DNA from: a virus | Taxonomy: Duplodnaviria > Heunggongvirae > Uroviricota > Caudoviricetes | DNA: 5,105 nt | Virus record (IMG/VR): IMGVR_UViG_2778261591_000001 | Location: 1 to 5,105 of that record | Strand: one strand, 5' to 3' | Shown here: positions 1 to 5,105 of the stretch, one piece after another | How the letters are laid out: the number at the start of each line of letters is the position of its first letter | Numbering within the stretch: the first letter of the stretch is position 1 | The notes under the pieces: model-generated | The model's input: only the letters and a program-made list of their open reading frames with translations | What the model was told of the DNA's origin: nothing | Databases searched by the model: none | Translations under genes and position numbers: made by a program

Positions 1-7
1 GGACCAG

Positions 8-892
8 ATGGCAGAAAACACACCAGAAGTTGAAATCGAAACCGACGCGTCAGAGCAGATTCCTGATGATGTCGAACTGGCTGAAGAAGTCGAAACAGAA
101 GATGGCAGTGAGTCCTCCGGCAATGATGCAGAGGAAGCTACTGAAACTGATGACGACGAATCAGAGCAGGAATTCTACTTTGGTGACGAAAAGCTGGATT
201 CGCCAACCAGCGAAGATGGCGCAGAGCATGGACTGGTAAAACACTTGCGCAAGACGATTAAAGAGAAAGACCGTGAGCTGAAAGAGCTGATGCGTCAGTC
301 TCAGAAACCCGTCGAGCAGCAGCCGGTAATCACTCAACCACCGCGAATGCCAAAACTGGATGATGAGGACATCGGTTTCGATGAAGAAATCTATCAGCAA
401 CGCATGGCTAAGTGGGCAGAGGATAACGGCAAGTACCAGGAGCAAATACGAGAGCGGAAACGAGAGGAAGAGGCGCGTACCGCAACGCTTCAGCAGAAAG
501 CAGCCAATTACATGCATAGAGTAAAAGCACTGAAAGTGGCTGGCTACCAAGATGCAGAGCAGGCTGTACGCGAAGATGTTCCTGTTCACATTCAGGACAT
601 GATCCTTCTTGAGTCAGAGAAGCCGGAAATCGTTGTTCTGGCACTCGGCCGCAACGCTGAACTGCGCAAGCAACTGGCAGAAGCTACAAACCCCGTAGCA
701 ATTGGTCGTCTGCTGGAACGTATCGAATCGAAGGCCAGAATCATGCCAAAAGCAAAAACCACGGCAGCCACAACCCCGACAGTTAAGGGGAGCAACGGCG
801 CAGTAATCAACAACCTCGACAAATTGAAAGCCAGGGCGCTGGAAACTGGTGACTGGACGCCGTATTTCGCCGCTAAAAAGGCAAAAAAATAA
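8..892 (+). CDS. Phage scaffolding protein (P22 gp8-like); start taken at first in-window ATG, so the true 5' end could lie upstream
   Basis: 294-aa ORF directly upstream of the coat gene. Strongly acidic, low-complexity N-terminal ~70 aa (D/E/S/T-rich), a central charged helical region (KEKDRELKELMRQ, REEEARTATLQQKAANYMHRVKALK) and a basic C-terminus (GDWTPYFAAKKAKK) that resembles the coat-binding helix-turn-helix tail of P22 scaffolding protein as I recall it. Size and position match scaffold genes of P22-like phages. Confidence 0.8.
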   Translation: MAENTPEVEIETDASEQIPDDVELAEEVETEDGSESSGNDAEEATETDDDESEQEFYFGDEKLDSPTSEDGAEHGLVKHLRKTIKEKDRELKELMRQSQKPVEQQPVITQPPRMPKLDDEDIGFDEEIYQQRMAKWAEDNGKYQEQIRERKREEEARTATLQQKAANYMHRVKALKVAGYQDAEQAVREDVPVHIQDMILLESEKPEIVVLALGRNAELRKQLAEATNPVAIGRLLERIESKARIMPKAKTTAATTPTVKGSNGAVINNLDKLKARALETGDWTPYFAAKKAKK

Positions 893-898
893 CCTATC

Positions 899-902
899 GG
901 AG
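899..902 (+). promoter_or_regulatory. Shine-Dalgarno (GGAG) for the coat gene
   Basis: GGAG lies 8 nt upstream of the ATG at 911, inside the 18-nt gap between the scaffold stop (TAA 890-892) and the coat start. Confidence 0.6.
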
Positions 903-910
903 CATTAAGC

Positions 911-2164
911 ATGGCTAACCAATTAGCAAAAGACCTTGAAATCATGTTCGAAAACTACGTTGAAGGCTTTGAGGCCGCCTGCGTAGTTTCCCGTAACGCT
1001 AAAAAATTCCGTCCCGGTGATACAGCAATGCAGCGAGCAGGTGATGTTCTGTATCGTCCGCAGCATTACCACATGAACATTGAGGAAGGCCTCGACCTCA
1101 GCAGCAAAACGCCAACAGCACTGGTTCAGCGCCTTGTTCCTTCTGTGTTCAAGGAGCCGAAAAACATTCTGTACACTCTGGATGCGCGTGAAATGCGTGA
1201 CCCTGAACATAAAACTGAAGCTGGTCGCGCCGCAGGTATGCGCCTTGCTGCACAGATTGACTCTGACCTGATTTCCATGGTTACGCAGCGTGCTACTAAC
1301 GTGATCACAATGTCTGACTCAACCACAGGTACACAGGGCCGTGATTTGTGGAACTGTGCGGCAGGTATTGATGCCACCATGACGGCGATTGGTGTACCTC
1401 AGGGTATCAACCGTCGCTCTTTCTGGAACCCCTTCAACTACAAAGACCTTGCTGGCGAGCTTGGTCACCGTGCCTACGCTCAGGGCGCAACCCTGACAGC
1501 ATACGAAAAAGCGCAGATCCCTCCGGTTGCTTCCTTTGATAGCTACAAGACCGATATTTCTGGTCGATTACCGAAAGGAAGCGCTGAATCCTTGACAGTA
1601 TCAGGCCAACCTGAACACAAGGTTGAAGCGAAAGATTCAAATGGTATGCCAGTTGATAACCGACAGGGGACTATTACGGTATCTGCATCTGGCTTGCAGG
1701 TTGGTGATGCGTTCACCATTGCCGGTGTGAATTCCGTACACCAGATCACAAAAGATACCACCGGGCAACCGCAGGTATTCCGTGTTCTGGCTGTTAGCGG
1801 AACTACCGTAACAATCTCTCCAAAGATTCTCCCTGTTGAAAATGCCGATGTTGCGAGTCGTCCATATGCAAACGTCGATGCCAAACCGGCAGAATCAGCA
1901 GCAATCACCATTCTCAACAAGAACGCAGCACCGGCTAACCTATTCTGGGCTGATGGTTCTGTTGAACTGATGTACGGCAAACTGGCATTCCCGACTGGTC
2001 AGGGGCCACAGGTAATGACAGCAACCACCGAGCAGGGCGCTACGCTGATCATGTCTTACGCCTTCGACCACATCAAAGGCGTAACCACTGCACGTTTCAC
2101 CACTCTGTACGGTTGCTCTGTACTGGTTCCTGAATATACGGGCATCGTTATTGCCGGGCAGTAA
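911..2164 (+). CDS. Major capsid (coat) protein, P22 gp5-like HK97 fold with an inserted domain
   Basis: 417-aa ORF with SD and ATG start. Several segments align by eye with my recollection of P22 coat protein: FRPGDTAMQRAGDVLYRPQ against P22 [21 protein letters not shown], and RPYANVDAKPAESAAITILNKNAAPANLFWADGSVEL against P22 [37 protein letters not shown]. Length is close to P22 coat (430 aa) and the gene sits in the expected scaffold-coat order. Confidence 0.9.
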   Translation: MANQLAKDLEIMFENYVEGFEAACVVSRNAKKFRPGDTAMQRAGDVLYRPQHYHMNIEEGLDLSSKTPTALVQRLVPSVFKEPKNILYTLDAREMRDPEHKTEAGRAAGMRLAAQIDSDLISMVTQRATNVITMSDSTTGTQGRDLWNCAAGIDATMTAIGVPQGINRRSFWNPFNYKDLAGELGHRAYAQGATLTAYEKAQIPPVASFDSYKTDISGRLPKGSAESLTVSGQPEHKVEAKDSNGMPVDNRQGTITVSASGLQVGDAFTIAGVNSVHQITKDTTGQPQVFRVLAVSGTTVTISPKILPVENADVASRPYANVDAKPAESAAITILNKNAAPANLFWADGSVELMYGKLAFPTGQGPQVMTATTEQGATLIMSYAFDHIKGVTTARFTTLYGCSVLVPEYTGIVIAGQ

Positions 2165-2170
2165 TTTTGG

Positions 2171-2194
2171 TGGGGCTTCGGCCCCATTTTTATT
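2171..2194 (+). terminator. Rho-independent terminator-like hairpin just downstream of the coat gene
   Basis: Seen directly: TGGGGC (2171-2176), TTCG loop (2177-2180), GCCCCA (2181-2186), then TTTTTATT (2187-2194). This is a 6-bp GC-rich stem with a UUCG tetraloop and a U-tract, starting 7 nt after the coat stop codon (TAA 2162-2164). Confidence 0.6.
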
Positions 2195-2205
2195 GGGAGA
2201 AGACA

Positions 2206-2394
2206 ATGGCACGAACAATGCTCTATAAGCCGGGCAACATGATCACCTGTGGTCAGTTTGCTGTCGATTACATCATTGTTGATGACGAAGAAGTTAAATC
2301 TCACCTGAAAAAAGGTTGGGTAAAAACTCCTGAAGAAACCGCAACGAAGCAAAAAGTGGCTAAGGCGGAAGAAGATGGCGAAAACGAAGGGTGA
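2206..2394 (+). CDS. Small hypothetical protein (62 aa) between coat and tail-adaptor genes; function unknown
   Basis: The ORF track gives 2167..2394 from a TTG start, but that start would run through the terminator hairpin. The ATG at 2206 has a GGGAGA Shine-Dalgarno (2195-2200) 5 nt upstream, so I place the start there. Product MARTMLYKPGNMITCGQFAVDYIIVDDEEV... has an acidic/lysine-rich C-terminal tail. Its stop overlaps the downstream gene start by 20 nt. I recall P22-like phages carrying a small ORF at this position, but cannot verify it. Confidence 0.5.
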   Translation: MARTMLYKPGNMITCGQFAVDYIIVDDEEVKSHLKKGWVKTPEETATKQKVAKAEEDGENEG

Positions 2395-2836
2395 TCTCGT
2401 TCTAAAGGCTTTACGAAAAGCCGGGCTGTATTCCAATGCCACGTTGACAGATGCTGACCCTCAGGCAATTGAAGATGCCATTAATGACCTCGAAGACATG
2501 ATGGCAGCATGGCAGGCGAAAGGTATCGAGCTTGGGTATCAGTTTGCTGATACAGAAAACGGCATCATGCCGTTACCTGACGATGATTCAGGTATCCCCG
2601 CATGGGCAAATGATGGTGTCGCTTTGAAACTCGCTGTGCAAGTGTGCATGGATAACGTCATTCAGCCGTCAGACGCTCTCCTTACCGCTGCTGACAGTGC
2701 ATATCAGACAATCTGCATCGCTTTAACCAAAATACCACCACTTGAGCGGCGAAATGACATGCCTCGCGGTAGTGGCAACAAAAGCGCGTTTACGTGGAAT
2801 CGGTTTTACATCGAGAAAGATGATCAGAGTACGTGA
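2375..2836 (+). CDS. Head-completion / head-to-tail adaptor protein (P22 gp4-like)
   Basis: 153-aa ORF. The N-terminus MAKTKGDLVLKALRKAGLYSNATLTDADPQAIEDAINDLEDMMAAWQ closely parallels P22 gp4 as I recall it (M-x-x-KTKGDLV..AALRKLGV.SDATLTDVEPQ...DDLEAMMAEW). A C-terminal RGSGN motif is also shared. Position is directly upstream of the gp10-like gene, with AAGG/GGAAGAAG purine-rich SD upstream of the ATG. Confidence 0.9.
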   Translation: MAKTKGDLVLKALRKAGLYSNATLTDADPQAIEDAINDLEDMMAAWQAKGIELGYQFADTENGIMPLPDDDSGIPAWANDGVALKLAVQVCMDNVIQPSDALLTAADSAYQTICIALTKIPPLERRNDMPRGSGNKSAFTWNRFYIEKDDQST

Positions 2837-2841
2837 GGTGA
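2836..2841 (+). promoter_or_regulatory. Shine-Dalgarno (GAGGTG) for the tail hub gene, overlapping the stop codon of the preceding gene
   Basis: The motif tGAGGTGaataaATG is visible in sequence: TGA stop of the adaptor gene at 2834-2836, GAGGTG at 2836-2841, ATG at 2846. Confidence 0.6.
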
Positions 2842-2845
2842 ATAA

Positions 2846-4264
2846 ATGCCGATTCAGCAACTTCCGCTTATGAAAGGTGTCGGCAAAGATTTCCGAAACG
2901 CCGACTATATCGACTATCTGCCAGTGAATATGTTGGCTACACCCAAAGAAATCCTCAACAGCAGCGGATATCTTCGCTCATTCCCGGGCATTGCCAAACG
3001 TTCTGATGTGAACGGTGTATCTCGAGGCGTCGAGTACAACATGGCGCAGAATGCTGTCTATCGTGTGTGTGGCGGCAAGCTCTACAAAGGAGAAAGTGAA
3101 GTCGGTGATGTTGCCGGAAGTGGTCGCGTATCAATGGCGCATGGTCGTACATCTCAGGCGGTAGGCGTTAATGGTCAACTGGTCGAGTATCGCTATGATG
3201 GCACGGTTAAAACCGTCTCAAACTGGCCTACAGACAGCGGATTCACGCAGTATGAGTTAGGCTCAGTCCGCGACATTACGCGCTTACGTGGGCGTTATGC
3301 GTGGTCAAAAGACGGCACTGATTCATGGTTTATCACTGACCTTGAAGACGAATCGCATCCTGACCGCTACAGCGCACAATATCGCGCAGAATCTCAGCCG
3401 GACGGCATCATCGGTATCGGAACATGGCGAGACTTCATCGTCTGCTTTGGTTCATCGACGATTGAATATTTCTCCCTGACTGGCGCAACCACCGTTGGTG
3501 CTGCTTTGTATGTCGCCCAGCCATCATTGATGGTGCAAAAAGGCATCGCCGGGACTTACTGCAAAACGCCGTTTGCTGATTCCTATGCTTTCATCAGCAA
3601 TCCGGCAACAGGTGCGCCGTCTGTATACATCATCGGCTCCGGTCAGGTGTCACCAATCGCCAGCGCGAGCATTGAGAAAATCCTCCGCTCCTACACTGCT
3701 GATGAACTGGCTGATGGTGTGATGGAATCGTTGCGGTTTGATGCTCATGAGTTGCTGATTATCCATCTTCCGCGCCATGTTCTGGTGTACGACGCATCTT
3801 CAAGCGCCAATGGTCCGCAATGGTGTGTGCTGAAGACAGGCCTGTATGACGATGTGTACCGCGCTATCGACTTCATTTACGAAGGCAATCAGATAACGTG
3901 CGGCGATAAGCTGGAATCTGTCACCGGGAAACTGCAATTCGATATCAGCAGCCAGTATGACAAGCAGCAGGAACACCTGCTGTTTACTCCACTCTTCAAA
4001 GCAGATAACGCCAGATGCTTTGATCTGGAGGTGGAATCATCGACGGGTGTTGCTCAGTACGCTGACCGCCTGTTCCTATCGGCAACCACTGACGGCATCA
4101 ATTACGGACGTGAGCAGATGATTGAGCAGAATGAACCGTTCGTTTACGACAAGCGCGTTTTGTGGAAGCGTGTCGGGCGCATCAGGAAAAATGTCGGCTT
4201 CAGATTGCGCGTTATCACGAAGTCACCTGTCACTCTGTCAGGCTGCCAGATAAGGATTGAGTAA
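2846..4264 (+). CDS. Tail hub / tail tube protein (P22 gp10-like)
   Basis: 472-aa ORF, the length I recall for P22 gp10, lying between the gp4-like and gp26-like genes in the canonical P22 order. Strong SD and ATG start; its stop overlaps the next start (TAATG at 4262-4266). Start [16 protein letters not shown]. Confidence 0.85.
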
Positions 4265-5105
4265 TGGCTGATTCGAATCTCAACACCCCTGTTATTATGC
4301 AGGCGACGCGGCTCGATACATCAATCCTTCCACGCAATATATTCAGCCAGTCTTACCTGCTTTACGTTATCGCACAGGGTACTGATGTTGGTAACGTGGC
4401 GAACAAGGCCAACGAGGCCGGACAGGGCGCTTATGACGCACAAGTCAGGAACGATGAGCAGGATGTGATTCTCGCTGACCATGAGCAGCGAATTTCTGCA
4501 GCGGAAGCAACGCTTGTTAATCATGAGGAGCGAATCAGTCAGGCAGAATCAACTCTTCAGGACCATGAAACACGAATAGCTCAGAATGAAAGCGATATTG
4601 CGTCGCTTGATACCAGAGTTCAGTCGCTGGAGTCGCAGGTTTCAGACCATGAAACGCGCATCGATGCTCTGGAGTATGCCACTACTCGCAAGAAGTCAGA
4701 GGTTGTTTACTCTGGCGTATCTGTAACCATCCCGACAGCGCCGACCAACCTTGTTAGCCTGCTGAAAACGCTCACGCCGTCATCCGGCACGTTGGCACCA
4801 TTCTTCGACACCGTTAACAACAAGATGGTTGTGTTCAACGAGAACAAAACCTTGTTCTTCAAGCTGTCGATTGTCGGGACGTGGCCCAGCGGAACCGCCA
4901 ACAGGTCAATGCAGCTAACCTTTTCCGGCTCTGTCCCTGACACGCTGGTAAGCAGTCGTAATGCGGCGACAACGACCGATAACATCCTGTTAGCTACGTT
5001 CTTCAGCGTGGATAAAGACGGCTTTCTTGCCACAAATGGCAGCACGTTAACCATTCAGTCTAATGGTGCGGCATTTACTGCCACAACCATCAAAATCATT
5101 GCGGA
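4264..5105 (+). CDS. Tail needle / cell-envelope-penetrating plug protein (P22 gp26-like), 3'-truncated by the window end
   Basis: Open frame from ATG 4264 to the window end with no stop (I translated it manually, at least 280 aa). This ORF is absent from the supplied track, which lists only stop-terminated ORFs. The N-terminus [63 protein letters not shown] is near-identical in pattern to the P22 gp26 N-terminus as I recall it ([43 protein letters not shown]...). It is followed by D-H-E-x-R-I heptad-type repeats and a beta-rich C-terminal region. Confidence 0.85.
4477..4669 (+). repeat. Imperfect periodic direct repeats (GACCATGA[G/A]...CG[A/C]AT units, 42-nt or 84-nt spacing) encoding the coiled-coil of the tail needle
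   Basis: Seen in sequence: gaccatgagcagcgaatttct (4477), catgaggagcgaatcag (4522), gaccatgaaacacgaatagct (4561), gaccatgaaacgcgcatcgat (4646). They encode DHEQRIS / HEERIS / DHETRIA / DHETRID, i.e. a 14-aa (two-heptad) period. Confidence 0.6.

Follow-up and report, generated by a model that had tools for sequence, protein, structure and literature searches.

An Sf6-type tail needle gene in a P22-like late operon and its plug, shaft and knob modules

Tail needles of P22-like phages combine an N-terminal plug, a coiled-coil shaft and a C-terminal tip. Here, we describe a needle gene at the end of a 5,105-nt stretch of tailed-phage DNA (hereafter, the window), in which the original prediction had seen a mosaic needle with a P22-type plug and an exchanged distal domain. 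Module-by-module comparison places the protein in a known, structurally and genetically characterised family, of which it is a real but ordinary member.

The operon and the needle gene

The window is a single rightward operon of intact open reading frames (ORFs) for scaffold, coat, a small ORF, gp4, gp10 and the needle. The rightward genes for the scaffold protein (8–892), the P22-type coat protein (911–2164) and the gp4 adaptor (2375–2836) were assigned by matches to phrog_648, PF11651 and PF11650, respectively, and the small rightward ORF, known from the ORF call, lies between coat and gp4. They are followed by the gp10-type tail hub, the docking partner of the needle (2846..4264, + strand), which matches PF11134 ('packaged DNA stabilization protein gp10') with E = 1.3e-301. 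The TAA stop codon of gp10 (4262–4264) and the ATG of the needle gene (4264–4266) share one base, giving the sequence TAATG at 4262–4266, an overlap through which translation of the needle is probably coupled to that of the hub. The order of hub and then needle is also that of Sf6, HK620 and P22.

The needle gene, a homologue of Sf6 gene 9 and P22 gene 26, occupies 4264..5105 on the + strand, exactly where an ORF had been predicted, and its assignment draws on the ORF itself, an identical annotated prophage gene, identity to Sf6 gp9 and phrog_1030. The ORF opens with the ATG at 4264 and runs in frame to the window end without a stop, over 280 codons plus 2 nt; these are codons 1–280 of 282 and two nucleotides of codon 281. 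The corresponding gene in the prophage of Escherichia coli UTME-3 has 849 nt and encodes 282 amino acids ending in ...IIAEQ-stop, so the needle in the window is short of two codons and the stop. By this copy, the 7 nt of the gene that lie beyond the window end supply Glu, Gln and the stop. The distal domain had been described as not fully visible because of the truncation; the loss amounts to two residues, which leaves the knob practically whole.

At the protein level, 275 of the 282 residues (97.5%) are identical to those of Sf6 gp9, and the whole needle protein matches phrog_1030 ('tail needle knob') in PHROGs with E = 1.1e-132. The exact window protein already has a RefSeq accession, WP_069905546.1, under the PGAP name 'tail needle knob protein', which the identical genes of the UTME-3 and UTAK-1 prophages bear. 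The ORF almost certainly encodes the trimeric tail needle, of Sf6 type, of a P22-like (Lederbergvirus) prophage of E. coli.

An NCBIfam search of the needle gave no model at cutoff and only sub-threshold matches to generic coiled-coil proteins (SMC, PspA and RNase Y), which lie far under the cutoffs and are composition artefacts. Weak Pfam matches (tropomyosin, XhlA, ATG16 and others), none of which reached its gathering score, are due to the coiled coil. No observation speaks against the identity of an Sf6-type needle.

Plug, shaft and knob

The N-terminal plug, or hub-binding domain (residues 1–60; 4264..4443, + strand), was delimited by identity to the P22, Sf6 and UPF_BP1 needles and by PDB and PHROGs matches. 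Within it, 49/60 residues (81.7%) are identical to P22 gp26, 57/60 to Sf6 gp9 and 59/60 to UPF_BP1, which upholds the P22 gp26-type N terminus of the original prediction. P22 gp26 chains in the PDB, from crystal and cryo-EM structures, match residues 1–144 (E about 1e-44), and the 62-residue P22 gp26 chain 8eap_B matches residues 3–64 (E = 1.2e-27). Residues 1–70 match two PHROGs families, phrog_1219 (P22-type needle, 2e-37) and phrog_1030 (5e-31). The cryo-EM work on Sf6 describes a plug that seals the channel of the gp10-type hub and retains the DNA (PMC9728967). In the window needle, the N-terminal ~60 residues would form a helical hairpin, of which three chains would build a quasi-sixfold plug in the channel of the hexameric gp10 hub, and this plug would prevent the packaged DNA from leaving the head (PMC9728967).

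The coiled-coil shaft (residues 61–139; 4444..4680, + strand) was defined by heptad and lag autocorrelation, an AlphaFold2 helix and the identity of relatives. Residues ~70–139 form ten regular heptads, with one position occupied by I, L or V in 10/10. Identities at lag 14 number 25, compared with 4.6 ± 2.0 in 5,000 shuffles (z = 10), the autocorrelation at lag 7 has z = 3.1, and a [DN]HExRI motif recurs at residues 72, 86, 100 and 128 as part of a 14-residue super-repeat. Glycine and proline together make up 0% of the shaft. Tandem Repeats Finder detected no DNA repeat in 4264–5105, and the repetitiveness is a 7/14-residue periodicity at the protein level only. A single-sequence AlphaFold2 model contains a continuous helix over residues 47–141, with block-mean pLDDT values of 82–95 over residues 61–130. 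Heptads and predicted helix together bear out the repetitive coiled-coil middle that had been claimed. In length the shaft equals that of Sf6 gp9, with which it aligns without gaps; the Sf6 shaft is reported to have 11 heptads and that of HS1 16 (PMC3741392). By near-identity, three copies of residues ~61–139 would wind into a coiled coil, a shaft of about 11 heptads that may reach past the tailspikes.

The C-terminal knob (residues 140–280 of 282; 4681..5105, + strand; Pfam PF16532, Phage_tail_NK) was assigned by Pfam, PDB identity and contact residues. PF16532 ('Sf6-type phage tail needle knob') matches residues 108–280 with E = 1.5e-115 and a score of 383 bits, for a cutoff of 27. The knob is identical at 149/151 positions to PDB 3RWN, the knob of the Sf6 gene 9 protein, and at 149/150 to PDB 4K6B, the HS1 knob. 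From residue ~140, Ser, Thr and Val together account for 36% of the sequence and Gly and Pro for 10%, and the AlphaFold2 model places strands after the helix. The model as a whole has a mean pLDDT of 62.7 and its knob is low-confidence (pLDDT 37–80), and the fold assignment therefore rests on the 99% identity to solved structures. The crystal structure of the Sf6 knob (3RWN) was reportedly published in 2011 by Bhardwaj et al. That of the HS1 knob (4K6B) followed in 2013 (PMC3741392), and Sf6 and HS1 are the knob-bearing needles with solved knob structures. The Sf6-type knob is described as a TNF-like jellyroll (PMC3741392); by near-identity, residues 140–282 of the window needle would fold into such a jellyroll knob, the predicted trimerisation and tip domain.

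In the published structures, the jellyroll trimer holds three L-glutamates and a phosphate (PMC3741392). All the L-glutamate contact residues listed there (E146, K200, S248, D250, L255 and K277) are present in the window needle at the same positions as in Sf6, and the phosphate triad S231-R232-N233 from the same list is kept, so that all nine ligand-contact positions are conserved at the sequence level (PMC3741392).

The knob is unrelated to the tip of P22. BLASTP found no similarity between residues 140–280 and P22 gp26 (E = 0.30), a Pfam search of P22 gp26 did not find PF16532, and a PHROGs search with the C-terminal 141 residues gave matches to phrog_1030 and to some families that have no annotation, and none to phrog_1219. 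The window needle carries no P22-type tip domain, that is, no domain homologous to residues about 141–233 of P22 gp26. The distal domain had been predicted to be Ser/Thr/Val-rich, of β type and unlike the P22 tip, and composition, modelled strands and the BLASTP result agree with this; a helical C-terminal half aligning with P22 gp26, the outcome that would have spoken against it, was not seen. The composition does change at residue ~140, where the β domain had been said to start, although the peptide quoted for it, SEVVYSG, begins at residue 145 (nt 4696).

Comparison with named needles separates the three modules. Sf6 gp9 (knob PDB 3RWN) resembles the window needle in its 282 residues, its three modules and its position after a gp10-type hub gene with a one-base overlap; its place in the virion is known from cryo-EM (Li et al. 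2022, PMC9728967). The two proteins are separated by seven substitutions (V8T, I12M, V21I, R92S, S113A, S234A and S270A), and their DNA is 87% identical over the first 180 nt and 96–97.5% over the rest. Against Sf6, Kapi1 and Louie, the window needle is 93–95% identical in the plug (residues 1–60), 97.5–98.7% in the coil (residues 61–139) and 98.6–99.3% in the knob (residues 140–282). The 317-residue, long-shaft needles of Gally and JEP4 give the same ranges for plug (93–95%) and knob (98.6–99.3%), but only 72–73% for the coil. These belong with the HS1-type shaft, which is 35 residues longer than that of the window needle (317 residues in all; 16 versus 11 heptads) and was described as a long-shaft variant by Leavitt et al. 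2013 (PMC3741392). The HS1 knob (4K6B), identical to the window knob at all but one of 150 positions, shares with it the Ala at Sf6 position 270.

P22-type needles share the proximal modules only. The 233-residue proteins of HK620, UPF_BP1 and Dewey are 95–98% identical to the window needle in the plug and 34–39% in the coil, P22 (233 residues) is 82% and 40.5% identical, respectively, and in all of them the knob region is unrelated. P22 gp26 (PDB 2POH and 3C9I) and HK620 gp26 (5BU5) thus have a homologous plug (82% and 97%), the same coiled-coil principle, the same gene position and the same role, and differ from the window needle in their length and in an unrelated C-terminal tip that ends in ...HGLID and lacks PF16532. 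For HK620, Pfam did not find PF16532 in gp26, the alignment with the window needle covers residues 1–148 only, and the phage is listed as subtype A of the P22-type tip (Leavitt et al. 2013, PMC3741392). The distal domain had been likened to the knob-bearing needles of Sf6 and HK620; the likeness to Sf6 is confirmed by the 149/151 identity to 3RWN, whereas HK620, with its 233 residues, HGLID ending and missing PF16532, has no such knob.

Tip function and prophage context

The present comparisons establish which protein this is, where its domains end, that its ligand contacts are conserved and in which genomic setting it lies. The mechanism proposed for the needle follows published work on Sf6, HS1 and P22, carried over by near-identity; it is from these homologues that we infer trimer formation, plugging, release and an effect on delivery kinetics. 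Three chains would assemble into a long needle fibre. The tailspikes would first digest the O-antigen, after which the knob would be placed to touch the outer membrane first, as the tip of a shaft that projects beyond the tailspikes should do (PMC3741392). Release of the needle would then unplug the channel for the ejection proteins and the DNA. Altered tip domains may change DNA-delivery kinetics, and host specificity would not come from the knob. For both points, the engineered phages of PMC3741392 provide the precedent: P22 carrying the Sf6 or HS1 knob plated on and infected Salmonella normally, from which it follows that the knob adds no host specificity, glutamate-site mutants had no phenotype, and several other engineered tip changes slowed K+ release, which points to a role of the tip in delivery kinetics. 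The suggestion that an exchanged tip may alter the interaction with the host envelope survives as far as delivery kinetics are concerned; host specificity was unaffected in the P22 chimeras (PMC3741392).

A different role for the knob would be that of a receptor-binding domain that sets host range, like the TNF-like fibre knobs of adenovirus and PRD1, which would make the needle tip the key specificity determinant of the prophage. The fold does resemble the adenovirus and PRD1 knobs, and among P22-like phages Sf6-type knobs occur in those of Escherichia and Shigella only, with 0/48 in those of Salmonella (PMC3741392). The near-identical matches found here are likewise almost all from Escherichia and Shigella, the exception being one record labelled Klebsiella phage phiKp_30. 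We nevertheless consider this role unlikely: the P22 chimeras with Sf6 or HS1 knobs infect Salmonella normally, glutamate-site mutations have no phenotype and tip alterations change only the kinetics of K+ release (PMC3741392), and Sf6 recognition has been assigned to the tailspike (for LPS) and to OmpA and OmpC (PMC9728967). A delivery tip that confers no host specificity is the reading that we retain.

The whole window is matched best, at 99.9% identity, by prophages in the chromosomes of two E. coli strains of bovine origin, UTAK-1 and OkiPb01711; both hosts fall within the Escherichia/Shigella range of Sf6-type needles. No exact match of the whole window was found at the UTME-3 locus, which is identical only from about nt 4154 onward. 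The 842 nt of the needle gene are 100% identical to the prophage genes of UTME-3 and UTAK-1 and, over their full length, 94–95% identical to phages Louie, Kapi1, N7, Sf6 and phiKp_30. In the UTME-3 prophage, terminase and portal genes lie upstream, and a DUF2824 gene in the gp14 position, ejection proteins and tailspike lie downstream of the needle; the hub gene before and the gp14-type gene after the needle are arranged as in Sf6. Sf6 differs further upstream, where its match to the window begins at nt 2836, the scaffold and coat genes of the window being CUS-3/Kapi1-like rather than Sf6-like.

Needle genes of this kind are widespread, and one alternative is that the gene belongs to what is left of a decayed prophage and no longer serves to build virions. 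P22-like remnants of several genes, an Sf6-type needle gene among them, have been reported from more than 100 E. coli genomes (Leavitt et al. 2013, PMC3741392). Among 5,426 complete E. coli genomes, 1,212 have some match to the needle, but in only 402 does it span 80% of the gene or more, and IS1203 insertions are found in this block in some strains. In the window itself, all five morphogenesis ORFs are intact and match their Pfam models over the full length, and the late operon of the UTME-3 prophage is whole from terminase to tailspike, with no annotated pseudogenes. These observations favour a needle gene in an intact late operon and make decay a quite improbable explanation. The near-full copies in about 400 E. 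coli genomes are 95–99% identical to the window gene, and with the window a gene already known from hundreds of E. coli prophages gains one further near-identical allele.

Mosaicism of the family and of the gene

To compare the modules, the N-terminal 81 and the C-terminal 143 residues were searched separately against phage records by tblastn. The N-terminal part matched 146 records, all of P22-like, APSE or Sodalis phages, and best those of Sf6 and Louie (96.3%) and UPF_BP1 (96.1%), with P22 at 82%. The C-terminal part matched 290 records, 11 of them at 95% identity or more; those examined at this level (Gally, JEP4, Sf6, Kapi1 and Louie) are Sf6/HS1-type needles. The remaining knob records are 37–57% identical and come from 150–180-kb myophages of Salmonella, Dickeya, Citrobacter, Klebsiella and Aeromonas and from ~44-kb phages such as PP99 and ECBP5. 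These PF16532 homologues of large myophages and other phages align with the window knob over about 130 residues. In the description of 2013, such stand-alone homologues have no P22-type plug, carry the knob homology at or near the C terminus of proteins of unknown function, and are reported to conserve the glutamate-contact residues (PMC3741392).

As a family, then, the Sf6-type needle is a domain chimera relative to P22, and this domain swap was already described between 2011 and 2013. Among 164 P22-like genomes, 69 had Sf6-type and 95 P22-type tips; the Sf6-type knobs, confined within this group to Escherichia and Shigella phages, diverged by no more than 4.9%, and the knob was argued to have come into the P22-like group recently and from outside (Leavitt et al. 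2013, PMC3741392). The window needle is a standard member of this family. Its plug, coil and knob have the same nearest named phages, and other genomes contain identical copies; the gene is therefore no new chimera. The original prediction had named a closest homologue shared by both halves at similar identity as the finding that would argue against mosaicism, and to the letter this is what we observe, with Sf6, Louie and Kapi1; the term 'mosaic tail needle' holds for the family but not for the gene as a newly made combination. Outside correct annotation, its significance is small. What the analysis contributes is a set of exact domain boundaries (plug, 4264–4443; shaft, 4444–4680; knob, 4681 to the end) and two corrections, the absence of a knob from HK620 and the effective completeness of the knob in the window.

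Identity also varies on a finer scale. A patch around the needle start (about 4244–4360) is 78–87% identical to the Sf6-type phages and 93–98% to Salmonella phage UPF_BP1, and changes three residues relative to Sf6 (residues 8, 12 and 21). It is a short patch of recombination or divergence of a kind seen throughout the operon. There is a slim chance that it records a hub-docking tip swapped recently between P22-like phages of Salmonella and E. coli, with the three substitutions perhaps co-adapted with the gp10 hub variant of this prophage; if so, the unit under selection in needle mosaicism would be the compatibility between plug and hub rather than the knob.

That the gene as a whole is a newly recombined mosaic, joining the plug of one lineage to the coil and knob of another in a combination not seen before, is scarcely credible: the higher identity of its first ~100 nt to UPF_BP1, a phage with a P22-type tip (93–98%, versus 78–87% to Sf6-type phages), and the different spread of plug (146 records in P22-like, APSE and Sodalis phages) and knob (290 records including large myophages) would fit it, but Sf6, Louie and Kapi1 are nearest for plug, coil and knob alike (93–99% of amino acids), two E. 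coli chromosomes carry the complete gene at 100% identity and about 400 more at 95–99%, the exact protein is already in RefSeq, plug, coil and knob together are the published Sf6 architecture (PMC3741392), and the 5′ patch alters only those three residues. In the DNA identity profiles, the module junctions of this established architecture fall at about 4454–4484 (residues ~64–74) and about 4664 (residue ~134).

Mosaic junctions along the head and tail genes

Relatives of the prophage differ in which part of the window they share. Only Kapi1 and phiKp_30 cover 100% of the window in one aligned piece; 720R6 and JEP4 cover 98% of it in two aligned pieces. Sf6, Louie and N7 begin to match only at nt 2836–2840, so that they share gp10 and the needle gene, whereas CUS-3, phiv205-1, EC.P3, E212 and Sf101 match from nt 1 to around nt 4463–4487, that is, from the scaffold gene to the needle plug. 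As judged from these alignments, the break between window 1–2835 and 2836–5105 is the usual module shuffling of P22-like head and tail genes.

Two finer discontinuities lie within the tail genes. From around nt 4154 onward, the window and the prophage of Escherichia coli UTME-3 are 100% identical, whereas 5′ of this point (roughly 3460–4154) identity falls to 78–98%. This step places a putative recombination junction within the 3′ end of gp10, separating otherwise related prophages. Around the needle start (window roughly 4244–4360), the sequence is 93–98% identical to that of Salmonella phage UPF_BP1 but just 78–87% identical to those of Sf6-type coliphages, to which the remainder of the needle gene is 96–98% identical. 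The needle of UPF_BP1 carries a P22-type tip, unlike the knob encoded in the window. On this pattern of identity, the stretch appears to be a short mosaic patch.

The coat–gp4 interval

A G+C-rich hairpin, GGTGGGGCTTCGGCCCCATT, with a T-run (TTTATT) directly after it, lies on the plus strand at window 2169–2188, 5 nt past the coat stop codon. At the equivalent position in Sf6, a terminator named ‘t coat’ is annotated. Between the coat and gp4 genes, a small plus-strand open reading frame of 62 amino acids (window 2206–2394) overlaps the start of gp4 (nt 2375) and lies where Sf6 has gene 6 and HK620 has hkbT. Its product matches phrog_1175, a PHROGs family of unknown function (E = 9e-29), and searches of Pfam and NCBIfam returned no family for it.

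Endonuclease and insertion-sequence neighbours

In several E. coli genomes (for example, NZ_CM149865.1, NZ_CP186931.1 and NZ_CP022164.1), the annotated features under the match are the needle-knob gene and, where gp10 would be expected, a ‘NUMOD4 domain-containing protein’. NUMOD4 is a homing-endonuclease-type domain, and the arrangement may reflect insertion of an endonuclease gene or, alternatively, a remnant prophage. In UPF_BP1, an HNH endonuclease gene is located immediately upstream of gp10. An insertion of IS1203, an IS3-family element, splits the morphogenesis block in some E. coli O111:H8 strains (NZ_CP077506.1 and NZ_CP077436.1), which indicates that these strains carry apparently decaying copies of the window’s prophage type.

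Needle labels and knob homologues in other phages

Escherichia phage Dewey (PQ850600.1) encodes a product labelled ‘tail needle knob’ (CDS0010, nt 1501–2202 of the Dewey locus L010). The protein is 233 amino acids long and ends in ...HGLID, as in the P22/HK620 needle type, and a domain search found no PF16532 domain in it; the label is probably a mis-annotation, on the evidence of the encoded protein. Phage Huey, whose match to the window is limited to nt 1–200, bears the same label.

Knob (PF16532) homologues with 37–57% identity occur in around 280 records of phages that are not P22-like, a number that far exceeds the 21 ‘outside’ matches given in the 2013 study (PMC3741392). The carriers comprise Salmonella and Dickeya myophages of roughly 157 kb, T4-like phages of Citrobacter, Klebsiella and Aeromonas, and phages of roughly 44 kb; examples are PP99 (KY250034.1), ECBP5 (NC_027330.1), Miller (KM236237.1) and SJ2 (NC_023856.1). 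Most of these records carry no functional annotation for the homologue.
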